A stretch of 64,000 nt of DNA from Botryllus schlosseri (lineage: Eukaryota), in contig CM119371.1 in NCBI GenBank assembly GCA_051294905.1, positions 41,232,001 through 41,296,000 of the forward strand, read 5' to 3'. The notes below the pieces were generated by a model. That model did not search any database, was not told the DNA's origin, and saw only the letters and a program-made list of their open reading frames with translations. Positions 3,405 through 58,662 of this stretch are shown here, one piece after another. Both the position numbers and the translations under genes were made by a program. Position 1 is the first letter of the stretch. Each line of letters begins with the position of its first letter.

Positions 3405-3590
3405 GAAGAGCTTCTTGGAGGTACAGAACTTGAATATACAATTGAATAGTATATTAATATTGAAATGAACGCTAATATTTTCGGCAGAAACTCGTCAGGG
3501 GTTATCGTCCGCAACTAGCAGAGAATTGGATAGAACATTATATATTAACAATCGTATCACAAAATATGACAGCCAAAAATATGTCATTCA
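3405..3590 (-). mobile_element. Solo Penelope terminal repeat (pLTR) with hammerhead core
   Basis: Matches 43915-44077. Minus strand reads gcggacgataaccc-CTGACGA-gtttctgcc-GAAA-atat-TA-gcgttc. Confidence 0.8.
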
Positions 3591-4451
3591 AAAATATCCG
3601 GGTTCATTCCAATATGAACATACCATTCAACACTATTTTTCTAACCTAAAATTTTCCACTTCAATGAATACACCTACACCGGTTGGAATTCAACCAGTAC
3701 CGGTAGCATCTTTAGCCAGTAAATTTGAAAAAATAAGTTATTTCTATCCAACCCTAATGTACCTATGCAATACTATAATATATTCACTTTCAGGGGTCAA
3801 TACACAACAAACCTGCCATAGTAGTTTGTTCCATGAGCACATAAAATATTATAGACGAAAGAACCAGCCAAATCAAAATATATAGGTGAGCAACTATTAC
3901 TGCGGCGGACATTAACGATCAACTTGAATCAACGTCAATTGGCAACACTGGGAACAATTCTCGGCGCTTCTTCGATATACGCCCGAGATCGAAACAGTGT
4001 TTCACGTAACACCACCAAGTGCTTCCCATGAGCACAATACAATTTTATAATCGTCAAAATAATTTTTTTTTTGCTTTTGAAGAGACAGATATTAGGGTTG
4101 GAGGTGGGTTGGGGTCATATTTGGGGATAGGTTATCCCAAGATTACGGTTGGGGGAGGGGGTATTAGGGAAGAGGAAGGAGCGATATTAGGGTTGAGGTC
4201 AAAGTTGGGGTTCGGGTATCCCAAGATTAGGGTTGGGGCGGGGTATAAGAGTTGGATGTGGGTTAGGGTCAAATTTGAGGTTGGGGTATCTGAAGATTCA
4301 GGTTGGGGAAGGGGGATATTAAGGTTGGGGGAGGGGGGTCTTAGAGTTGGATGTGGGTCAGGGTCAAAGTTGAGGTCATGGTTTCGCAATATTACAGTTG
4401 GGGGAGGGGGTTGGATGTGGGTTAGGGATACCCTAACCTAAACTTTGACCC

Positions 4452-6500
4452 TAAACCGGGTAAATCGGTTTTGGGCGACATAATATAACATTAGGGCCTA
4501 ACTGTCGCAATAGGCGTCGTAAACATATACATATCGAGGTAGTTTCTAAACATATACGTGCTGTAAAATCTTTATCATGTTTTTCGTTCGTGACGTAATG
4601 GAATAGATTATGCGTCACCGATAGATTTATCCGATCCATGACATTTACATAGGAATATGTAAAGGACGAATTAATACTTTATAGTCCGGGTACAAGCCTG
4701 TGTCTATCGCTCGCAACGGCGCTACGTCATAAGCGCTTGCATTAGGCGGTATTCCATATCCCTTTTTAATATGTTCGATCGATACATACAACGTCATAGC
4801 TATCTAAGCTTTTGTTCATGCCGTCACTTAATACATCATGAAGAAAATGGACGCCGGTTCGGTGCAATACATACATATAAATATACGTGAGACGGTCTCT
4901 TGCGTTGAAGTGGAAAACATGAAAATGTCGATTTCCACACGCACAAGTCCGAGTACGATTATTGAGATGTTACTCGAGAATGCATTACGTAATATAAGTT
5001 TCGGGTAGACGTTCTTACTCAACCGTGCTAATGCGTGCGGTTTACATACCCACGCATTAATTTTTTTCGTCATTTTCGATGCGTGACGTCGCTAAATACC
5101 TCATATCATGTCGACCGGCAGTATTTAGTTCATTATCGGGTGCCAATCAATGTCATGTCGACCGGTATCTGTTCACAATTGGTCGACATGTATTATCAAG
5201 GCGACCAGCGTTCCATACGAGGGTTGGATCTGTGATCGCGCTACTATCAGCCGTGTGAACTTGTACCTACCGATCCATCTGTCTTCCGGATCACTAGTCC
5301 GGAACAATCCGGTTTTTTTCGACATACTATAATATTGGGGCATAACCGTTCGCAATAATCATTGTAACATATAGATCTTGATATACATGTTAAACATATA
5401 TGTGCGTTCAAATAATTCTTACGTTTTTAATCGTGACGTCATGTAACGCGTTATGCGTAACCGATCTAACTATTGGGTCCACTACATATATAGACGACAC
5501 TTTAACCCTGTCTCTTATAGTAGATATGGCAGAAAACCCGTGATAAATGGCGGATTCAAACTGTCGAGTCCGAGTCTCTGACCATTACATGAAACGGCGT
5601 GACGTCCTAACCGCCGCCTACTTTACGCAGTATCCATTTTAAGGTGTACGGTAAGCATATTATACACGCTTGATATTTATCTTAACTTTAGTTCGTGACG
5701 TCACTGAATACATTATGATTAAGAGGTATGCCGGTTCGGTCCTATACATATACATATAAATATGCACGAGGCGATCTCTTATATGTGGAGTTTGGAAAAA
5801 AACACGAAAACTGCCATTCCACACGCACGAGTCCGAATACGAGGCTGGATCTCATTATGTTACCTTAGAATGAAATACGTAATATCAATTTTCGGCCTGC
5901 GTTCTCACTCGTCTGTGTCAATGTGTGCGGTATACATAATACATACATACATTTGTACGCATAATATGTATCATAATTGGTAGTCGTGACATCACTGAAT
6001 ACATGCTGCGGATCAGGAATACCGATTCGGTTTAATACGTATATAGAAATATACTCAAGTCACTCTCTAATGTGGAGTATGTTTCATAAAAACTATCAGA
6101 TGGTGATTTTCAAAGGGCCGAGTCTGATTTTGATTTCGCGTATCTCTCCGTTATCTGAGATGGGATTACGGCCTCCTAACCCTTCGCAATAAGCTTTATT
6201 ACATATCCATTGTAATGTGTACGGTACACATATAAAAGCATGATATTTATCATAATGTGTATTAGCGACGGCACGGACTACATTAAACGGAACCGGGATA
6301 CCGATTCGGCCAAATACATACGCATATATCGATGAAATATTGCGGTATCTTACGTGGAGTATGGTTGTAATAAAATGAAAGCGATCGGTATTCAAACGGC
6401 CGAGCCAGAGTATGTGTCTCTGTGTGCGACGTGAGGCGGCATTATGGCATACCCGTTCGCATCATGTCTTATTATAGATCCATGTTAAGGTGCATGATGA
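4452..6500 (+). repeat. Degenerate ~250-290-bp satellite-like units, left arm of the foldback
   Basis: Recurring gtgacgtcactgaatacat...ccgattcggt...gtggagt...ccgagtccgag motifs near 4590, 4820, 5083, 5433, 5695, 5985 and 6265. 4452-5330 is repeated directly at about 8925-9890. Confidence 0.75.
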
Positions 6501-16647: not shown

Positions 16648-17657
16648 GATTACCAGAGAACCCGGCCCTTGGAGAACCCGGCCCTACCAACTCGGCCCTC
16701 GGAGAACCCGGCCCTTGGAGAACCCGGCCCTCGAGAAATTTTGTATATCAAGCACGCGTGGTCTACTTGTTGTGGTATTCACGGTGTTTTTCGACTACTC
16801 TGGACCTCGGAGAATGCGGCCCTCGAACAATTTTGAATTAAAAATGCATTAAATGTGTACCCGGCCCTCGGGAAATTTTGTATTCACCGGCAATCCTAAT
16901 ATCCTAACCCTAATATCCCACCTCCGGCAACCCTAATATCCCACCCCGGCAACCCTAATATCCCACTTTCGGCAACCCTAATATCCCACCCCGGCAACCC
17001 TAATATCCCACCTCCACCAACCCTAATATCCCACCTCCGGCAACCCAAATATCCCACCTCCACCAACCCTAGTATCCCACCTCCGGCAACCCTAATACCC
17101 CACCTCCGGCAACCCTAATATCCCACCCCCGGCAACCCTAATATCCTAACCCTAACCCTAATATCCTACCCCAACCCTAATATCCCCCCTCCCCCAACCC
17201 TAATATCCCACCTCAGGCAACCCTAATATCCCACCTCCACTAACCCTAATATCCCACCTCTGGCAACCCTAATATCCCACCTCCGGCAACCCTAATATCC
17301 CACCTCCCCCAACCCTAATATCCTCCTCCCCCAACCCTAATATCCCACCTCCGGCAACCCTAATATCCCACCTCCACCAACCCTAATATCCCACCTCCGG
17401 CAACCCTAATATCCCACCTCAACCAGCCCTAATATCCCACCTCTGGCAACCCTAATATCCCACGCCGTGACTGCGTGACCTACGCATGCCCTGAGCTCCT
17501 TACAAGACCGACAAATCAGTTGATAATAACATTATTACTTTATTAATTCATATTAATACTTGTGAATACACCGAGGGCCGGGTTCTCCAAGGGCCGGGTT
17601 CTCCGAGGGCCGAGTTGGTGGGGCCGGGTTCTCCAAGGGCCGGGTTCTCCGGCAACC
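16648..17657. mobile_element. Non-autonomous TIR element (GGTTGCC-end family) with internal minisatellite
   Basis: Inverted arrays of ggagaacccggccct / agggccgggttctcc at both ends. No clear TSD. Confidence 0.8.
16890..17462 (+). repeat. ~23-bp minisatellite (ggcaaccctaatatcccacctcc)n containing the CCCTAA hexamer
   Basis: About 24 tandem variants, directly visible. Confidence 0.95.
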
Positions 17658-18022: not shown

Positions 18023-19636
18023 ATGAAAATGCATTTGCGCACTGCGCAAGGAATATTACTCCTCTATGCCTGCATGTTTTCATTAACACAGGCTGATTTC
18101 GGATATATCACAATGATAAACGACATCGATAATGCATCCTTACAAGTCTGTTCCCAATTCAACCCCAGTTTCGCCCCCTATCCAGAGACTTTGAATCCGG
18201 ACTCTAAAGGAATACGGGTCGTCGACATTTACCCAGACCCCGGCTGCGATCCCCCAGAAAACCCAGACATATACAAAGGAAAGATTGTGTTCATGAAAAG
18301 AGAGAACTGTACGTTTGCACGAAGAGCTAAAATAGTTCAAGATGCGGAAGGTAAAGGCATTGTCGTAGTTAGCGAAAAGGGATCCGTTAGCCCAGGTGCT
18401 GACACCACGGAATACCATGAAATCAACATCACCGTGTCAGTTATCGGGAATCATTCTTACAACAGCCTATCCGCGGAAATGCATAAGTATGGTGAAGACA
18501 AAGTGTCGCTAATGCTACATGCCCCGGAAGTTCAATCTTGGAATGTAGACATGTTTGTAATGTGGGCCATCGCGGTCCTAGCCTGCGGTACAGGCGCGTG
18601 GGCTCAAGGTAGCGCTTACGCGGAGCAATTATCTCGTATGATGGCGTCTCGATCTACCGGAAGCTCTCCAAACACTAAAGAGAACAAAAAGAAAGTGCCT
18701 CAAATCACGTTGGTGCACGCTGTCATCTTTTTTGCCATGAGCTCCGTATCTATACTGTTGATGTATTACTTCTACAAGTATATGGTGTACGTGATCATCT
18801 CCATCTTTTGCTTGGCGTCTTGTATCGCGATGTTTGATTTGTTGGACGGAAAATTCAACAAGTCTCCTTGCTTTGCGCGTTATCGCCTCCCGAAATTACC
18901 GTGTATGAAGTCTAGGATACCGTTTTTGAGCGTTGTATTATTCTCGATTTGTGCCGCCATATCTATCTTTTGGGTAATTAACCGCAAAGCTTCCTACGCA
19001 TGGATTTTACAGGATATTCTAGGATTCGCGTTTTGCGTGCATATGATCAAACAATTACGATTGCCGAGTTTCAAGATCAGCGCAGCCATTCTGATTCTGT
19101 TCTTCATATATGACATATTCTATGTGTTTATCACCCCGTTTCTCACTAAAAACCATGAAAGCATCATGGTTAACATAGCTACTGGTTCAGGCGGGTCGTC
19201 TTCTGAGGAATTACCGATGTTATTCAAACTTCCAAGGTTAGGACATTATGCTTTTCGGGAATGTGTCACTATCACCTCTTATTCCATGTTAGGGTTCGGA
19301 GATGTGATCCTTCCTGGGTTACACGTTGGATATTGTGCAAATTGGGATTGTCGCATCAGCATTAATACTGTCCGTAGACACACATACTACATAGCTGCCA
19401 TTATAGGTTATGGTTTAGGACTGATCCTGACTTACGTAGGCATGTTTTTAATGTCTACCGGGCAACCTGCGTTGCTGTATTTGACACCTTGCTGCTTGTT
19501 AAGTACCTTAATCGTGGCTCTAAAACGAAAGGAATTACCTGCTATCTGGAAAGGTAAGGTAAAGCGGCGTGTTGAAGTCACTACCCCTGAAGAAGAATCA
19601 GAGTCGTTAATGTCGAATGGGGACCATGATCTTTAA
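18023..19636 (+). CDS. SPPL2: Signal peptide peptidase-like 2 family aspartyl intramembrane protease, intronless (537 aa)
   Basis: N-terminal signal peptide, PA domain (KIVFMKRENCTFARRAKIVQDAEGKGIVVVS), multiple TM segments, catalytic YD (IYDIFYVF) and GxGD (LGFGD), and QPALLYL motif. Confidence 0.95.
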   Translation: MKMHLRTAQGILLLYACMFSLTQADFGYITMINDIDNASLQVCSQFNPSFAPYPETLNPDSKGIRVVDIYPDPGCDPPENPDIYKGKIVFMKRENCTFARRAKIVQDAEGKGIVVVSEKGSVSPGADTTEYHEINITVSVIGNHSYNSLSAEMHKYGEDKVSLMLHAPEVQSWNVDMFVMWAIAVLACGTGAWAQGSAYAEQLSRMMASRSTGSSPNTKENKKKVPQITLVHAVIFFAMSSVSILLMYYFYKYMVYVIISIFCLASCIAMFDLLDGKFNKSPCFARYRLPKLPCMKSRIPFLSVVLFSICAAISIFWVINRKASYAWILQDILGFAFCVHMIKQLRLPSFKISAAILILFFIYDIFYVFITPFLTKNHESIMVNIATGSGGSSSEELPMLFKLPRLGHYAFRECVTITSYSMLGFGDVILPGLHVGYCANWDCRISINTVRRHTYYIAAIIGYGLGLILTYVGMFLMSTGQPALLYLTPCCLLSTLIVALKRKELPAIWKGKVKRRVEVTTPEEESESLMSNGDHDL

Positions 19637-28908: not shown

Positions 28909-31900
28909 CTAGTACCTCCTCATTTGCCGTGAGCTAGACTGAAACAAGTCCGGCCTGGGGCTTGTGGTCGGGTGCCTCGTCACTGGTTGCGCGGGGCCTT
29001 GATTTTGTGAAAGGGGCGCCAAGGGCAATTGCGAAGTTTGCCCCGGATACTGTCTCGGATAGCGTCCGTACCGATCTCTGCCGCTGGCGTACCCTTGCTG
29101 AAACTCCGTTGGGGGGTAGGGATACTCTGGGTTTCGATCGTAAGGAGGGTAAGGGTATCCGCCTCTCGCGAATTGATTGCCCTCGCGACAGTTGATAGTA
29201 CAGCACAGGCAAGATATTTCGCCGCAGTCCGGCGTCTGGCAGCTTACGGCGGGGCACGTACAGAAACCGCTGAGACAGTCCGTGCAGCCACTGCAGTCCA
29301 CACACTGACAAAATGTAAACTCACTTAAAGTGATGAAAATTTTCGTGAAATTATGATATGATTTGGTGGTTATGCATGCATGGGAATTTACTCTTAAATT
29401 ACTCTTGATGCGAAAGCTTATATTTCCATTAGAAGAGCTTCTTGGAGTCACAGAACTCCAATATACAAATGAATAGTATATTCATATTGAAACCAGCATA
29501 TTTCCAGCTGACACTCGTCAGGGGTAATCGTCAGCAACTAGTACCCTTGGCACTCAAGTTGGTGTCAACAGAAGGAATTAATGTACCATCTAAAATTAAT
29601 ACATTGAGCTTAAGCTCTCTCTACCCCCATTATCCGAAATTTCATGCCGGTGACGTCATATTTTGTGATACGATTGTTGGTATACAATGTTCTCTCCAAT
29701 TCTCTATTAGTCGCTGACGATTACCTCTGACGAGCGTCAGCTACTATTCAATTGTATATTTCAATACCTTGAAAAAAATCCAACTTTCAATATTCGATTC
29801 GAATCATTACAATTGATACTAGACTTGGATTTGAGTTATGCACAGGCCTACGATGAAACTCATGCCGATAAAATAATAAAATTAGTGATGGAAATGAATA
29901 TCGTTCGACTGCTGCAAGTGATAATGCAACAGAAAGGTATGCAATACGACTAGCATGGCTGTCTGCTGATAGAAAGTGCCGATGTTGGGTGAAATGAGTC
30001 CGGAATCACACGTTTTTTCCCATTCGAAACAATTTTGCATGCCGTCTGTGAAATTTACGCACCAAAGATGAATTTTGAAAATTAATAGACTTTACTGCTA
30101 AGTTGCCCATCAAGTTGTTGCAGAGATTATACAGTAAACCGTACCGAACAACTTAGTAACCGTCGATTCGAAAATAGTTACCTTTCTGATATGCGCTAAC
30201 AGACTCGGATAACTAGGTAATTTCAATTAGTCTAATTCGAGCCAGTGATTTAATGCTAATCACATGATTTGTGAAATGTTTCCATGCTCTAATTTTAATC
30301 AAATTTTAATTAATGCTTTTCCTGAACATAAAACAAGAGTACTGTATACGGTAGTTCGAAACCAGCCAAGCTTGCTGTACAGTAGGGCTGTTCATAAACA
30401 ATTTTTTCTTTCAAATTTCACAGGCTACGTGATAAAATTATCATGTTGGCTAAAACAGCGCTACACACCAAATTTGGTTCAATCCCAACCAGTAGAAGTG
30501 AGGTTATTGCAGTAAAAAAATTTGGATTCGAATAAAATAGTATTTACGGTGACTACGGTAACTCTTTCATTATTGATTATAAAATCATGGAATCAGAAAT
30601 TTTTCTACTGCAATAACTTCGCTTCTAGTGGTTGGAATTGACCGAGTTTGGTGTGCATCATCTCTACTGACAGCCCAACAATTTTATGAATTTTATCTTT
30701 TATATAAAAAATCCAATACATTCGACTGCAAGAACCTCGCTTCTACTGGTTGGGATTGAGCCAAATTTGGTGTGTAGCACTGTTTTAGCCAACATAATAA
30801 TTTTATCGCATAGCCAGTGAAATCTGGGGAAAAAGTTTTTTTTTATCAGCCCTACTGTACAGACACTTGCCATTCTCGTGCATATGATACCGAACTCTGA
30901 ATTGATATGAAATAAGCCTGATTTTTGTTGATTTTCTTCCGGGTTGGGAATTTAGGGGCTAATTCTCTTTTCAAGTTTTTCTGCTAATTCCGTCATTCTA
31001 ATTCATATCTAATTTGATTCACAGGATTCGCAAATACGTGGAAATTGAATAGAACTCCTAATTAAAGTTCATTTTTGTATCAATCAATGTCTTCACATCA
31101 AGCTTGCCTCATTTAGCACTGTACAGCTCTCTTGTAGCATTTTCAGCAAAACCGGTAATCAGGACGGAATTAAAATCGGAGCATAGAAATATTTCGTAAA
31201 TTAGATCATTAAATTAGCTTCGATCTGTCCAATTAGACATTCAGAATAACCTGGTTGCTCAAGTCGTACAGTGAAAGACCTCAGTAAGTGGCAGCCTCTA
31301 GTATTCATACACGTATATTGTAGTACATGTTTCGATTCAGATTGAAAACACGGAATCAGCCATTTTTTCCCAACACCGGCACATAACATAACATCTACCA
31401 CATGGGGCGCATGCACGAAATCATTACTACCGCTAGAATTACCACGATCCAAGACCAGACTTTAACCCTTTGTGGACTGAATATATTCTCTATGGTTGGA
31501 AAAATTATTTCTATGCGTAACTTTAATTGTTTCACCTAAACTTAAACATTGGTCAACAAAATTTAAATTTTTCTTTTATTATTTATTATTTTGAATGTTT
31601 GTCGCAAATTTGCGACATCAGGCTTTCGCGACAAAAATCGAAACCAAACACGTCAATTATGACAATTGAAATTACTGGTCAAAATTAGCAAAGCAGTTAT
31701 AGTTTTTGTTCAGGCACAGCTGTACATGACATTTGACACATTTTATAGCAGGTTGTTCTTCATAGGTATGTCACTTGCATCTCTGCCTGGTGTCCATGGA
31801 AGGGGTGTGACCCACTTGGTCACGTTGGGGTGGGCTTTGTTGGTCCTCTTTTCCTTTTTTATCATACTCCTGTTGGATACAGAGAGATGCCCTCCATCTT

Positions 31901-43914: not shown

Positions 43915-45146
43915 ATTAAATAGTATATTCATATTGAAATGAACCCGAATATTTTCGGCTGACACTCGTCAGGGGTAATCGTCAGCAACTAGTAGAGAAT
44001 TGGAAAGAACATTGAATATCAACAATCGTATCACAAAATATGACGTCACCAGCATGAAATTTCGAATGAGAGAACGTTCAATGTACTATTTTTAGGTGAT
44101 ACACGAACTCCTTTTGTTGACAGAGTTTTGGTTGGTGTATTTTGATAAAAGTTGATTCCAAGGCACACAAATGGAATTGTGAACGACCTCGACCTACGAT
44201 TCGAAATCGGTCGTCTCGATAATTATTCGCACAAATCGGATTATCCAACAGATGTTTGCCGATGGCAGAATTAATGGCCTTTGATCGATCAGCATCAATC
44301 TTAAGTGGATGAGTTAAGGGTGCGCTTTTCACATCGCGTGACGCACGTGTTCTGATAAATCTGGGGACATGTTGGTTTATGCGGTCCTGCAGACGTCTTG
44401 ACGTTCTTCCCACGTAGCCACAATCACAGTGGCACCTATATTCGTACACTACATTACTTTGTTGAAGTGCAGGAAGCACGTCTTTGCGTGTTGAAGGGAG
44501 CAGTTGTGTTGTTGTAAAAATCACATTGGTTTTGACTGTATCGTAACATTTACCGACAGCAGAAATCAATTGTTTTTCAAAGCGGGTGGAAATGGGGCCA
44601 ATCCAAGGTAGATGGATATAAACATCTTTTATTGTTCGTGCGGTGGGCTCTGCTCGTTTTTCTGCGTTGAATTGCGTTAATTTCCTCTCCATGCCGCGGC
44701 TGATGACGTGTTCAGGGTAACCGTTATCAAGTAAGATTTTTCGGATGTAGTCAAGTTCTAAACTCAGTTTGTTACCCGAACATATCATCAACGCTCTATG
44801 CACGAGTGTGCCTATGAGGTTAATTTTTCTGCGCCGAGGACTAAATGAATTCCAGCGGAGGTATTGGCCTGTGAATGTCGGTTTCCTGAAAACAGACGTT
44901 TCAAATTTGTTGGTATTGCGCTTTTCAACTAATACGCCCAGAAATGATAACGAGTTATTGCGTTCTTTTTCTATTGTGAATTGCAAGGCCGGGTGAAGCG
45001 AGTTTAAGCGAATGAGAAATTGGTCACACTCCGATTCATTCCTGAAAATGACAAATGTATCATCTACGTATCGGCGGTACAATAGTGGTTTGGCGGACTC
45101 ACGCTGGGACAGAAGCTCGCCCTCGTAATACCCTACGAAAATGTTG
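43915..45146 (-). mobile_element. 5'-truncated Penelope-like retroelement (RT C-terminus + GIY-YIG endonuclease + pLTR)
   Basis: Uninterrupted frame NIFVGYYE...YRRYVDDTF (RT active site), thumb region TSVFRKPTFTGQYL, GIY-YIG VVYEYRCHCDCGYVGRTSRRLQDRINQH. Stop at 44078 is followed by the hammerhead-bearing repeat. Confidence 0.95.
43941..43986 (-). ncRNA. Minimal type I hammerhead ribozyme (intact core)
   Basis: RNA GCUGACGAUUACCC-CUGACGA-GUGUCAGCC-GAAA-AUAU-UC-GGGUUC: conserved CUGANGA, GAAA and UH; stem I ACCC/GGGU; palindromic AAUAUU stem III. Confidence 0.85.
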
Positions 45147-45317
45147 GGTGAGTGGATTCGTATTCATATTTTATCCAATGATACATATATTGTTGATTTA
45201 TCTCAAATCCATGGCCTGATATGTTCTCTGTCCGCTAAATTTTGCACAGCGAGGACTAGCACGTACCTGACCTTTTGTTTTCAATCATCTGCTTTTTCAT
45301 GTTGGGTGTTTCTTCCT

Positions 45318-46981: not shown

Positions 46982-49900
46982 TTAACAGCTTCCTCCGTAT
47001 CCTCGGTGATTCAATTCTCTTGCCAGCTGGCACATGGCGCAAGGAGTACAACAGGTCACGACACAGCAGTCATCGCATATAGAGCCCTGGATATAGAACA
47101 ACACGATTGTATTCGGCACAAATCATCCTAAAACGCCGTGTATCAATAAAGAGTCGAACAGGGATTGGTACGCGCAGTACACACACTAAGGAGATGCCTA
47201 ATTAGCGAGAAACGACTCATTGTATAGCCAAGGCCTACTCAGCAAAGTTGGACATCCAGAAAATGATCAGATTTTCCAAATTGATTAAGAAATAGAACTG
47301 ATAGCTACTTAGTTTTATCCAAGTTACCTTATGATAGAGGAGGTCAGTAACGAAATACTTCTTCTTGTCGAAGTAGCCTACTTCAGGTAAATTTTTCCTA
47401 CTTGAACTATTTACTCAAGTGTTTATGATTTCAAACTACTTCTACTTCATACTGTTCAGTTTTTCAGGCAAAACTAGGCCTAGAATACTTACTTTTGAGT
47501 AGAAATTGAGACAGTTAGCCTACTTCTACTTAACTGAGTAACGACAACTAGTACTTTTACCTCCTTTGTATTAGAATTAGAATTCCACGAAAAGTTAGAA
47601 ACTGAATTAAATTACATCTCAGAAAGAAACACTACAAAATAAAGCTCAGTTCATATCCAATCAGAGTACATTCTTGTATGCATGAGAATGAAAAATGTCT
47701 GTACACCAAGCTTGGCTCGTTTCGCACGATACAGTTCTGATGTAGCATGTTCAGAAAAACCAGAAATTAGATATTAGAATTAAAATCAGATCATAGAAAC
47801 ATTTCACAAATTAGATTAGAATTATATTACCTACATTTCTTTCTATAGCGAGTCCAGTCAACTGCTTTGTTATCTAGCCTAGCTATCTAGTTGGCCAAGT
47901 TAGCTGCTCAATATATGAATACAAATTTATGACGTTTCTTCTGCCCTCCAGAAGTAGCATAAATTACTTTGACTACCTCTGGCGATTTGTAACGTACCTC
48001 AATTCCATGTTTGGCTCTGAAGTGCGACCTCATGGCAAGATGGCCCCCAGGAACGCAGCCGCCACCGTACCCACTGCACCCGACGCAGCAATTCTCGCCC
48101 ATCCTGTCGGCCAAGCATCCGTAGTAAAAGTTTCCGAGCCAAAACACGCAACAACCTGCAATTAGCAGCGGCTTCACATTACACGAATGCTTGCATTCGC
48201 ATGCGATATATTATGCGTTTCTGTATAAAGCAAATTGAAATGAACCCGAATATTTTCGACTGACACTCGTCATGGGTAATCGTCAGCAACTATAGCAGTG
48301 TTGGGATGACTCGAGTCAACTTTTTCGTATGACTCGACTTGACTCGAGTCACTTTGCAAAAAGGACTTGACTTGACTTGACTCGGCGCTTCAGAAATGTG
48401 GACTGACTCGTGAATCGGAGCAAAATTTACGAGTCAATTTCAAGCCATTAAGTAAACGGTGTCGAATAAATCACCCTATCGTATGTATGTTCGGATTGTT
48501 CGCGATACGCAGGTGTTACTAGTGAGAGCAACCATGCAATCATTCACTGATTGTACGTTTCACTGATCCTCCATTGTTACATCATAAATAAATTGACCGA
48601 AGACGAAACGATCACAGCTTACTTTGTCGCACTAGAAATGCCACTCCTGGGTTTTTCCACCCAGATCTGGGTTTTTCGAGCATGACTTGGGTTTCTGTGC
48701 TTGAAATCTGTTTTTTTTTCAACATCATGTCAGGTCAATTTTACGGCGCAAAATTGATTATTAGATTAGTAAGATCTTCTAATGTCGACGGATTCCACTG
48801 TGATTGAAACGGCAGAGTCCAAAGAGACCCATTTACTATTAAAATGAGAGGTCTTGGCGTGATGCGATAGAGCTTCATTGAATAGTGACTACTAGGTCGC
48901 TGAAAGTCATGTTCACAGGGCAACTCTGATTTAGGACTTGAATGCTACCGGTAGCGCTGCAACAAATTCGTTTTCTGTCAGTAAATAGTATGTAACTGCT
49001 GTAAAGTATGCAATTTATTCACATGGAAAGACCAATTGTTGATCTAACTAATTTACCATGTTGACATCAGAGTATATTCACTTTCAACAGGGACACTCAA
49101 AAAGAGACAGTTTGGGCAACGGGGCAAGTTATTCAGAGTGAGAGGGGTTGTTTAATGCAAACGTACTCCTAATTTCATGATTTGGCAGTTTCTTTTCGAC
49201 TAAACATCCCAGATAAAAGTGTTTGTCCCAGGTTTAATGAATCGAAAGCTATTTTCGATATATCTGGTCAGCTCGCAGTCACTAGAATTACCCTACAATC
49301 ATCCTCACGATAGCTGGGGATTAGCATTGTTACTAACATTACGAATATATAATACACCACGTATTGACCCCCCATACCGAATGCCTGGTAGCAATGTGTC
49401 GAGAGGAAAACATCATATTTCGATGGATTTGCTCATTTATCTGAGCAACATGCATATTATAGTATGGAAATGAACCGTTGGGATTTCAATATCAAGGGCT
49501 AAAACTTTTTCTATGTCCTTAAAACTGTCATTGATGACTCTCAGTCACTGTTTTACAGCTATATCATAGAAATTTGAGTGAAATAGAGGATCTGGGTTTT
49601 TCTGTTTTTTTTGAACGTCCAAATCTGGGTTTTTCTAAAATATCTCAGTGGCATCTCTGTGTCGCGGTAGCAGTAGATTAATCTAATAGCAGCGTATCTT
49701 AGGCTGTTCATCAGTGGTTACATTGCGCAGTGCTCACCTTAACCAACCCTCTTGTATGATTTAAATCGAACGAATATAATTTATGCGTTTATATTCTCAC
49801 CGATGTGTAGATGGGTAGAGGCTTCGTAGTTCGTGTTCGATCCTCTATATTGGCTGATAATAGCAGATTGTAGCATGTAGCTATACACTTACTCGCGTAT

Positions 49901-52900: not shown

Positions 52901-54075
52901 TTCGCGCCTGGTCGGGACAAGAGATCTAGGATGGTGCTTCTCAGCACACGCTAGGCGCGTAGTCAGTCGAAATATTAGTGGGTTTGGATCTTTTTCAAAT
53001 TTAAACAGCTTCTTTGAGGTACAGAACTTCAATATACAATTGAATAGTATATTCATATTGAAATGAACCCGAATATTTTCGGCTGACACTCGTCAGGGGT
53101 AATCGTCAGCAACTAGTGGAGAATTTGAAAGAACAGCGTATATCAACAATCGTAACACAAAATATGACGTCACCAGCATGAAATGTCGAATACGAGAGCG
53201 TTCAATGTACTATTTTTAGATGATACACGAACTCTTTTTGTTGGCACAGCCTTGGCTGGTGTATTTTGATAAAAGTCGACTCCAAGGCACACAAATGAAA
53301 GTGTGAGCGACCCTTTCCCAGTATGCGAAATCTGTCGTCTCGATAATTTTTCGCACAGGCGGGATTATCCAACAAGTGTTTGCCAATTGCAGAATTTATG
53401 GCCTTTGATTGTTCCGCATCAATCTTGAGCGGGTGAGTTAAGGGTGAGCTTTTCACCGAGCGTGTTCTAATGAATCTAGGGACATGCTAATTTATGCGTT
53501 CCTGCAAGCGCTTTGACGTTCTTCCCACGTAGCCACAATCACAGTGACACTTAAATTCGTCAACTACATTGCTTTGCTGAAGTGCAGGTAGCACGTCTTT
53601 ACGTGTTGCAGGGAGCAGTTGCGTTGTCGTGAAAATCACGTTGGTCTTCACTGTGTCGTAACACTTATTGACCGCTGAAATCAATTGCTTTTCAAAGCGG
53701 GTGGAAATAGGCCCTATCCAAGGTAAATGGATGTAAACATCTTTGGTTGTTCGTTCGGTAGGCTCTGTTGAATTTTCTGCGCATAACTGGTCAAGGTCAA
53801 CCTGTGTCAAATTCCAAGCCTTATGTTCAGATATCAGAGATGCATAGAACTTCTAGAACTTCAAAATATCATAGCTAGAAATACCCACAAATTCTCAGAT
53901 CCGCGAAGCAGTCACACAGCGACGAGCTCCAGTGTTGTTCCGAAACATGTGGCTGATTTATAATCACCGTCGTGTTAACTGGCTGGGATAGACCCGGCTG
54001 CGCTGTCACAACTCCGTATTGCTGCGTGTCGTACGGACTTGGGTGGGCACTTGGGTACGGAGGTGCGGACTCCAT
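46982..54075 (-). CDS. PLAC8/cornifelin-family Cys-rich protein; exons 54075-53889, 48155-47998, 47086-46982
   Basis: Splice phases are consistent: MESAPPYP...VVTAQP...WSSSLCDCFADLRIC / CCVFW...ADRMGENCCVGC...AMRSHFRAKHGIE / GSICDDCCVVTCCTPCAMCQLARELNHRGYGGSC*. These are hallmark PLAC8 motifs (W..GL.DC..D, R.+.GI.GSIC.DC, C..CQ.ARE). Confidence 0.93.
48296..50514. mobile_element. hAT-type MITE (CAGTGTTGGGAT family) splitting a Penelope pLTR and carrying two further insertions
   Basis: TIR cagtgttgggat / atcccaacactg. pLTR halves lie at 48235-48295 and 50515-50610, with flanks gcaactatag / gcaactag. Nested 48633-49659 (tagaaatgccact / agtggcatctctg; flanks tgtcgcac / tgtcgcgg) and 50095-50350. 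Confidence 0.85.
50634..51218 (+). mobile_element. hAT-type MITE (CAGGGTTGTAA family), copy 1
   Basis: TIR cagggttgtaa / ttacaaccctg; TSD ggtacccg / ggtaccca; gactc arrays. Confidence 0.9.
51230..51615 (+). mobile_element. Penelope 3' fragment plus pLTR (hammerhead GAAA>GCAA)
   Basis: CAENYGDDRFRVVGRGRSHFNLGAL matches the 44078 ORF C-terminus; pLTR follows. Confidence 0.85.
51748..52343 (+). mobile_element. hAT-type MITE (CAGGGTTGTAA family), copy 2
   Basis: Colinear with 50634-51218 but has its own TSD acaaaaag / acaaaaac. Confidence 0.9.
53005..53780 (-). mobile_element. 5'-truncated Penelope copy (GIY-YIG region, disrupted) plus pLTR, in PLAC8-like intron 1
   Basis: Peptides nearly identical to the 44078 ORF (KDVYIHLPWIGPISTRFEKQ, CHCDCGYVGRT), with a premature stop and frameshift near 53460-53490. 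Confidence 0.92.
53065..53110 (-). ncRNA. Minimal hammerhead ribozyme (intact core), sense to the host intron
   Basis: Identical to 43941-43986. Confidence 0.83.
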
Positions 54076-56297: not shown

Positions 56298-56470
56298 AAC
56301 AATTGAATAATATATTGATATTGAAATATACCCGAATACTTTCGGCTGACACTATAGTCAGAGTTAATCGTCAGCAACTAAGGACATCAATTCTCTGATA
56401 ATTCCCACTGACTAGTGTCAGCCAAAAAATGCGTGTTTATTCGTATATCAGTTTGAATATATTATTCAAT
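56298..56470. mobile_element. Inverted pair of degenerate pLTR fragments
   Basis: cccgaatactttcggctgacact...aatcgtcagcaacta followed by agtgtcagccaaaa...gaatatattattcaat. Confidence 0.6.
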
Positions 56471-58419: not shown

Positions 58420-58662
58420 TTAAAGAGCTTCTTGGAGGAACAGAACTTCAATATACAATTGAAATGTATATTCATTATTCATATTGAAATGAACCCGAAT
58501 ATTTTCAGCTGACACTCGTCAGGGGTAATCGTCAGCAACTAGTAGAGAATTGGAAAGAACATTGTATATCAACAATCGTATCACGAAATATGACGTCTCC
58601 AGCACGCAATGAGATCTCAAATAAGAGAGCGTTCAATGTATCATTTTAGGATGGTATACGAA
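58420..58662 (-). mobile_element. Penelope pLTR with a near-intact hammerhead (58491-58536)
   Basis: CUGACGA-GUGUCAGCU-GAAA-AUAU-UC-GGGUUC (G-U at the base of stem II). Includes the last codons of the Penelope ORF. Confidence 0.85.

Follow-up and report, generated by a model that had tools for sequence, protein, structure and literature searches.

A motif on the minus strand of Botryllus schlosseri DNA (GenBank assembly GCA_051294905.1, contig CM119371.1, forward-strand positions 41,232,001 to 41,296,000) is read here as a minimal type I hammerhead in which a pseudoknot takes the place of helix II and which is carried by a retrotransposon of the Penelope/Poseidon type; we assign this reading a probability of roughly 0.55. 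The whole stretch of 64,000 nucleotides is called the window, and its first letter is position 1. The first-pass annotation of the window had proposed a minimal hammerhead with a one-pair stem II, a palindromic stem III, and a 6-bp pseudoknot. All of these features were retained, and the motif is of type I, whereas the idea that a pseudoknot can stand in for stem II proved to be known chemistry already.

Structure of the motif and covariation of its helices

A direct check of the minus-strand letters from 43986 to 43941 returned exactly the sequence given in the first-pass annotation. The motif begins downstream of a Penelope-like element (PLE) frame whose stop, ending at 44078, precedes the G at 43986 by 91 nt (previously put at ~90 nt). 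Read 5′ to 3′, it opens with the pseudoknot 5′ strand GCUGAC (43981 to 43986), a single-stranded leader located 4 nt upstream of helix I, whose partner lies at 43958 to 43963 and which covaries between families. The 4-nt linker GAUU (43977 to 43980) connects the pseudoknot helix, at its distal end, with helix I, the 5′ strand of which is ACCC (43973 to 43976). Then follow the core box CUGACGA (C3 to A9; 43966 to 43972), G10.1 (43965), a U (43964) that is the sole base between G10.1 and the pseudoknot 3′ strand, this strand itself (GUCAGC, 43963 to 43958, pairing with 43981 to 43986), C11.1 (43957), the core box GAAA (G12 to A15.1; 43953 to 43956), AUAU (43949 to 43952), UC (43947 to 43948), and the helix I 3′ strand GGGU (43943 to 43946), which pairs with ACCC. 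Helix III is reduced to a remnant, the pair A15.1-U16.1 around AUAU, which together form the palindrome AAUAUU (43948 to 43953). The hammerhead rule places the scissile bond directly 3′ of H17, here C17 at 43947, so that the predicted cut falls between 43947 and 43946. An ATG at 43930 to 43932, 15 nt past the predicted cut, opens the PLE frame in tandem copies; here only a short tail of the next unit follows.

As had been noted from the letters alone, all hammerhead core boxes are present, stem II consists of the single G-C pair G10.1:C11.1, and the six bases at the 3′ end of loop II (7 nt, closed by that pair) are perfectly complementary to the upstream GCUGAC. The gap from A9 to G12 comprises only 9 nt, the pairing partner being located upstream, and the block order is that of an ordinary type I hammerhead (C-G-S). 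The G-N7-C spacing equals that of the Rfam RAGATH-1 hammerhead consensus.

The genome searched for further copies comprised 495.5 Mb in 219 contigs, and the reversed pattern served as the control. The pattern CUGANGA-G-N7-C-GAAA-N4-UH matched 8197 times (4134 + 4063) versus 5 times (2 + 3) for the control, and the exact 44-nt motif of the window was found in 2539 copies (1311 + 1228) versus none. Longer spacers between the boxes (N10-20) gave 781 matches versus 313 in the control and were discarded as mostly noise, which indicates that hairpin-type motifs with a G...C closing pair are not common in this genome. The form with the 7-nt loop is the main hammerhead-like motif of the genome. The matches listed form several families that differ in loop, helix I, and palindrome.

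For the analysis of covariation, all 100 listed places of a pattern matching 655 + 628 times (control, 2 + 6) were fetched with their flanks. This pattern fixed only a pyrimidine anchor, CUGADGA, G, C, and GAAA, so that the G:C pair and A15.1 were given; the first core box was demanded by the search patterns, and its conservation is by construction. One further instance lay within a fetched stretch, and the resulting 101 instances were aligned with the window copy, pair counts being made on 84 distinct rows. In the pseudoknot helix 85.5% of the cells are paired and four of the six pairs change on both sides, as illustrated by pair 1 (AU 33, GC 29, GU 7, UA 1) and pair 5 (AU 52, GC 14, GU 9, CG 3). 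All four pairs of helix I change on both sides across families (80.9% of cells paired), as do both inner pairs of the palindrome (86.9%). Over the whole 14-pair structure, 85.7% of the cells are paired, compared with 20 to 37% after sliding the 3′ partners by one to three columns, and the covariation score is 0.379 versus 0.180 in shuffles, none of 500 shuffles reaching it. The covariation across copies that the first-pass annotation had suggested looking for was thus found for the pairing of the 5′ leader with loop II, and it is compensatory between families.

Seven fully complementary pseudoknots were observed: GCUGAC/GUCAGC, ACUAAC/GUUAGU, ACUGGC/GCCAGU, ACUGAC/GUCAGU, UCUGGC/GCCAGA, GCUGGC/GCCAGC, and ACUGGU/ACCAGU. 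Metagenome DNA added a further family, UCUGAC/GUCAGA, in ~90 of 108 readable matches, as well as a single copy that has a 5-nt linker and whose pseudoknot, UGACGC/GCGUCA, is unrelated. At positions left free by the search pattern, 74 of 83 distinct rows have U at U16.1 and 78 have a base other than G at H17; a perfect palindrome, AAUAUU or AAGCUU, is present in 53 of them. In the linker, position 1 is G in 69 and position 3 is U in 78 of the 83 rows. The nucleotide following G10.1 is free to vary, as is base 7 of the first box. Decayed copies form part of the sample (no more than 38 of the 101 rows are wholly intact), and three instances (L069, L075, and L139) belong to an unrelated repeat in which the boxes match without the helices.

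Taken by the rules of the class, the motif has the CUGANGA and GAAA boxes, the A15.1:U16.1 pair, a non-G H17, and three helices around the core (helix I, the pseudoknot in place of helix II, and the palindrome as helix III), each of them with covariation. Membership in the hammerhead class is well supported by these sequence rules and the covariation, and it appears highly probable from the same alignment that the pseudoknot-bearing fold is real and under selection.

Carrier element and relation to described hammerheads

The frame preceding the motif (44078 to 45163, minus strand, 361 residues) contains the reverse transcriptase motif YVDD as well as, at its C terminus, a GIY-YIG-like stretch with cysteines inside; the corresponding Pfam match is weak and below threshold (E = 0.077, 13.7 bits versus a cut-off of 22.6). 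The genome holds many copies of this frame at 95 to 99% identity, as judged from the 113 candidates scored out of 8992, and the longest of their open frames reach 860 residues; in a full frame of 848 amino acids RVT_1 exceeds its cut-off (E = 7.8e-9, 36 bits versus 29.6). By eye, the 848-residue frame has a DKG motif and no CX2-5CxxC linker. Its motifs, compared with the clade descriptions in the available portion of Craig et al. (PMC8557442), fit a PLE with a C-terminal endonuclease (EN+) of the Penelope/Poseidon type, for which two cysteines within the GIY-YIG core (CCHH) would be expected. The structural features expected of PLEs were also found, namely, partial tandems, inverted 5′-truncated copies, and a tail past the repeat. 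The carrier is a young and very abundant retrotransposon, and the window copy is the 3′ end of a 5′-truncated insertion.

The arrangement of complete units is apparent in a stretch of contig 16 (L067), which contains a head-to-tail array with a unit of 2692 bp. In L067 the frame stops at 4711, the hammerhead core occupies 4817 to 4842, the predicted cut falls between 4842 and 4843, and the next unit has its first ATG at 4857. In the representatives of other families an ATG is likewise located a short distance past the predicted cut. The interval between predicted cut and ATG (15 nt in family A, that of the window) has a conserved CAAUAUGAA context in the families inspected. With the predicted cut placed just before the PLE ATG, the ribozyme would define the 5′ end of the coding RNA, a task that HDV-like ribozymes (named for hepatitis delta virus) perform in some non-long-terminal-repeat elements. 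Families B and D adjoin PLE frames that are 58% and 57% identical, respectively, to the frame of the window family, and their untranslated flanks no longer align; the build is therefore common to well-separated PLE lineages.

Pseudoknot replacement of helix II is established chemistry and the defining feature of the RAGATH-1, or pseudoknot (PK), hammerhead (RF03152). According to the accessible part of Zhan et al. 2024 (PMC11300833), this ribozyme, in which a 6-bp pseudoknot replaces helix II, has been crystallised and is fast. The motif described here shares with it the type I strand order, the succession CUGANGA-G-7-nt loop-C-GAAA, and a 6-bp pseudoknot formed with sequence upstream of helix I. 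As far as that part of the paper describes it, however, the partner strand of the PK hammerhead resides in the loop of an extra hairpin (helix IV), its A-rich linker forms a minor-groove triplex, and its helix III is a long hairpin, whereas in the present motif a plain 5′ 6-mer, separated from helix I by the 4-nt linker, serves as the partner, and helix III consists of one pair plus the palindrome. Judged by eye, the family representatives have no conserved upstream hairpin corresponding to helix IV.

The minimal hammerheads of PLEs described by Cervera and de la Pena 2014 (PMC4209133) were taken to act as dimers, their role being unclear. Common features are the location in a PLE terminal repeat, the type I order, the conserved G10.1:C11.1 pair, a helix I of 4 to 5 bp, and a helix III of 1 to 2 bp with a palindromic loop. 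They differ in possessing a hairpin helix II of ~6 to 8 bp after an unpaired base, which is absent here, where the upstream strand pairs instead. A hairpin stem II is likewise present in all 38 rows examined of the canonical-motif table of Craig et al. 2021 (PMC8557442). Published PLE hammerheads are said to be without tertiary contacts between helices I and II.

Two further systems are related in topology. From the portion of Perreault et al. 2011 (PMC3088659) at hand, a type II hammerhead has a one-pair stem II that, as here, is extended by a 6-bp pseudoknot to the helix I side and that was tested by disruption and rescue; the same source estimates that ~40% of hammerheads use some stem I-II pseudoknot. 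The arrangement is mirrored, however: in that ribozyme, which has a full helix III (lacking here), the partner of loop I is the 3′ tail that follows G10.1, whereas in the present motif the 5′ leader is the partner of loop II, adjacent to C11.1. The SGC, CSG, and GCS types of Eckert et al. 2023 (PMC10085705, available in part) resemble the motif in their pseudoknotted core helices and in a short linker joining the helix I and II sides, but they permute three intact blocks. An assignment to these permuted types was rejected, as the blocks here follow the order C-G-S, with a single upstream relocation, that of the distal 5′ strand of helix II.

The motif thus combines traits of the PLE minimal hammerhead and of RAGATH-1 and, by defining features, is neither. 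Three of its traits are new: the host is an animal PLE, the 5′ partner is single-stranded and lies four bases away from helix I, and helix III is of the dimer type. No description of a pseudoknotted helix II in PLE hammerheads was found in the literature searched, most subscription journals being outside its scope. A large set of hammerhead variants, reportedly assembled by Lunse et al. in 2017, might already include this build. Whether these families form an undescribed class of animal PLE hammerheads, with helix II supplied in a trans-like manner by the 5′ leader and helices I and II covalently clamped by the 4-nt linker, we propose only tentatively and with more doubt than confidence. If so, the predominant hammerhead of this genome (~8200 copies) would be a compact build of ~44 nt, escaping Rfam and, as is to be expected, stem/loop descriptors based on hairpins, and it could explain some of the "core only" hammerhead remnants in PLEs that had seemed to be without a ribozyme. 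As we read the motif, a whole PLE lineage, and the dominant hammerhead type of a 495-Mb animal genome, uses the pseudoknot solution in an even smaller form than PK, and surveys of eukaryotic hammerheads that rely on Rfam models or hairpin descriptors are likely to miss thousands of copies.

A separate observation concerns the Naiad elements. In at least five Naiad consensus sequences from the portion of File_S5 of PMC8557442 that was inspected by eye, the 3′ end holds all hammerhead elements in permuted order; three of these cases adjoin the headers Naiad-2_Nbra, Naiad-3_Nbra, and Naiad_Hcon. The order in them is helix I 5′ strand, CUGANGA, helix II 5′ strand; helix III 3′ strand, UC, helix I 3′ strand; and then helix II 3′ strand, GAAA, helix III 5′ strand. 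It corresponds to type CSG of Eckert et al. 2023, which in the available part of that paper (PMC10085705) is reported only from metagenomes. Craig et al. (PMC8557442), in the sections accessible, concluded that Naiads are without canonical hammerheads, and we suspect that the permuted motifs are among the cases labelled "HHR_half_core" there. No paper linking Naiad elements to permuted hammerheads was found in a literature search.

Predicted mechanism, RNA reads, and competing explanations

In the proposed active fold, G10.1:C11.1 would close the 7-nt loop, the last six bases of which would pair with the leader 6-mer; as this 6-mer is tied to the 5′ strand of helix I through the 4-nt linker, the resulting 7-bp stack would both replace helix II and tether helices I and II. 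Ordinary hammerheads achieve such tethering by loop-loop contacts. Geometrically, the single base after G10.1 would have to span six pairs, as the short loop 1 of an H-type pseudoknot does when it crosses the deep groove, and the 4-nt linker would have to bridge the far ends of the side-by-side 7-bp and 4-bp helices; both spans look feasible. Since helix III is limited to A15.1:U16.1 around a 4-nt palindrome, the active fold should need a second copy, giving a double hammerhead, or a protein helper. In tandem arrays, where the predicted cut lies 15 nt before the ATG, cutting of two neighbours would free a 2692-nt unit RNA with a 14-nt leader, and this unit would end just past the ribozyme. It is in this conditional sense that we infer coaxial geometry, catalysis, a dimer requirement, and a biological role.

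Cleavage after C43947, as the first-pass annotation had also expected, is deduced by analogy, and we consider the motif on balance probably competent for catalysis under some condition. That it acts as a dimer has slightly less than an even chance in our estimation, judging from the palindrome (53 of 83 distinct rows) and by analogy with the literature. The clamp might make these minimal ribozymes faster than the poorly active PLE hammerheads of the hairpin type. The motif is a natural candidate ribozyme of ~44 nt whose tertiary clamp is a simple, designable helix. The location of the ribozyme 15 nt before a start codon and the extension of copies 66 to 76 nt past the cut, described below, bear on what PLE hammerheads do.

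RNA reads from four runs with the same species label were aligned to the tandem junction L067:3800-5900, 3 to 6% of each run being read. The depth amounts to 100 to 630 between 4723 and 4935, is near zero downstream, and remains mostly below 30 in the upstream frame; over ~220 nt around the ribozyme (L067:4715-4935) it is 10 to 100 times that over the frame. Reads occur in both orientations. Their loose ends on the 3′ side cluster at 4908 to 4918, i.e., 66 to 76 nt past the cut, which is where genomic copies end, and those on the 5′ side lie at 4715 to 4774. This pattern suggests very many short solo copies (~140 to 200 nt) embedded in other transcripts. The 3′ limit of the solo copies recalls the PLE "tail" and an internal start of reverse transcription. 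Reads of two single-cell runs (12 in one and 3 in the other, L067:4730-4821) go back 92 nt with 22 other letters in between, which probably reflects a variant copy in the genome that carries a local duplication immediately upstream of the ribozyme.

Several results weigh against the proposed reading. Nowhere in L067:3800-5900, the predicted cut included, do many RNA molecules begin or end, although such reads are no assay of activity; the depth instead peaks (~195 to 630) in the bin containing the predicted cut, and 63 to 96% of the aligned reads continue into unlike sequence. Run-on of the reads together with the lack of ends implies that most motif-bearing RNA is uncut read-through of scattered short copies. 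In the available part of Frangieh et al. 2024 (PMC11167929), hammerhead mutants of an Anolis PLE were without effect on insertion in vitro and RNA-seq ends at the cut site were not seen; like the reads analysed here, that study argues against most transcripts being cut efficiently. The first-pass annotation had further recommended a search of Rfam. In the whole window no Rfam model attained its gathering score, and around the site no hammerhead family appeared at E ≤ 10, the only hits being chance matches to CRISPR-DR53, RNA-OUT, NsiR8, and sR55; the best hammerhead scores elsewhere were 20 bits for RAGATH-1 (56.3 needed) and 18.5 bits for Hammerhead_1 (RF00163; 34 needed). With regard to the covariation, the covarying families are few and related, and the independent events may number six to eight rather than dozens. 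As to folding, the all-A-U self-duplex AAUAUU is predicted at -0.2 kcal/mol, compared with -4.3 kcal/mol for AAGCUU, and the window family would have to rely on a helper or on high local concentration. According to the nested minimum-energy fold of family A, the core is paired with loop II (CUGAC/GUCAG) and CCGAA with UUCGG, the latter hairpin hiding the predicted cut site.

The hairpin between core and loop II was considered as a selected helix in its own right and rejected: 83.3% of its cells are paired, but its covariation score (0.052) is not above that of shuffles (0.060), as the core does not vary. It is also weaker than the lone pseudoknot helix in all seven representatives (-5.4 versus -7.4 kcal/mol in family A), and energy modelling makes it a likely inactive conformer, above all in the family of the window. 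Unconstrained minimum-energy folds of dimers do not yield the double hammerhead, a result of little weight, as the program cannot model pseudoknots.

The read data leave room for an explanation that we hold to be rather unlikely, according to which the hammerhead-shaped, pseudoknotted fold is kept for another job in the cycle of the element and cleavage in vivo is negligible. Such a job could be template recognition by the reverse transcriptase/endonuclease near an internal start of reverse transcription or support for translation of the frame 15 nt downstream. It would account for reads without ends at the predicted cut and for the loose ends at L067 4908-4918: genomic copies that extend past the ribozyme must derive from templates not cut at the predicted site. 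In the same vein, the Anolis PLE, in the accessible text of PMC11167929, starts reverse transcription internally, downstream of its hammerhead, and inserts normally with catalytic mutations, and PLE minimal hammerheads cleave poorly in vitro (PMC4209133). Against it, U16.1 and H17, which matter for catalysis only, are kept although the pattern left them free, and the core boxes are identical across lineages with unalignable flanks, which a structural role would not obviously need. Bulk reads, finally, stem mostly from solitary copies, which are not expected to cut.

Covariation cannot separate an on-pathway from an off-pathway helix, and the leader 6-mer might pair with loop II outside an active ribozyme, in an alternative hairpin whose loop takes up both the core and the 5′ strand of helix I and which serves as a folding switch or is merely a stable hairpin of the 3′ untranslated region. 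The plain helix is indeed predicted at -4.0 to -8.7 kcal/mol and occurs in the nested minimum-energy fold of four of the seven family representatives. We nevertheless judge this improbable, because the same topology and spacing are those of the crystallised, active PK hammerhead, because the type II hammerhead with a one-pair stem II, in the part of PMC3088659 available, needed its 6-bp pseudoknot for activity, and because without this helix the motif would have no helix II at all. That the resemblance is due to chance, i.e., that a repeat happens to hold both hammerhead boxes without any selected RNA structure, is very improbable: L069, L075, and L139 demonstrate that box matches without helices do occur, but compensatory changes affect three separate helices across PLE lineages with 57 to 58% identical proteins, and the reversed-pattern control gave 5 matches versus 8197.

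Further copies and other repeats

An anchor search identified seven copies of the motif in the window, all on the minus strand, and a relaxed motif pattern gave 10 overlapping matches at five places versus 0.92 expected from shuffles. Besides the copy studied, the seven comprise a second copy at 53065 to 53110, identical over 46 nt; a copy at 58491 to 58536 in which C11.1 is U, giving a G:U closing pair; and a diverged copy at 3467 to 3512 with an intact core, three of four helix I pairs, A at H17, and the strands GCGGAC/UUCUGC, in which five of six pseudoknot pairs can form, as the first-pass annotation had counted. Three copies are decayed, with C3 changed to A in the core box (48242 to 48287), with an insertion in the core box and GAAAG (56328 to 56375), or with an altered GAAA region and loss of the helix I 3′ strand (29494 to 29535). 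Genome-wide, old copies of the window family often have CUGAUGA versus CUGACGA in young ones; the difference amounts to a C-to-T transition at a CpG, of the kind expected when methylation drives decay, and sits at the one variable core position. Many copies in the genome form inverted pairs 100 to 700 bp apart with the ribozyme ends on opposite strands (e.g., C14:1201871-1202218 and C6:1961346-1961683), a layout that equals the head-to-head arrangement described for PLEs.

A different repeat family (L276-L281), which accounts for 13 of the 100 N10-20 spacer matches listed, has CUGAUGA-G, an 11-nt spacer holding ACCAGU, and then C-GAAA. ACUGGU is located ~30 nt upstream, and UUACG/CGUAA could form helix I; judged by these letters, the repeat may represent a second pseudoknotted hammerhead-like build.

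The window also contains a tandem array with a period of 23 nt and at least 16 copies (16902 to 17506), four copies of G-rich repeats of ~81 nt (GGGTTGGGG-like; 4081 to 4410), and, between 4582 and 9858, several further families of dispersed repeats. Two open frames are present as well, one of 537 residues from 18023 to 19636 on the plus strand and one of 342 residues from 967 to 1995 on the minus strand.

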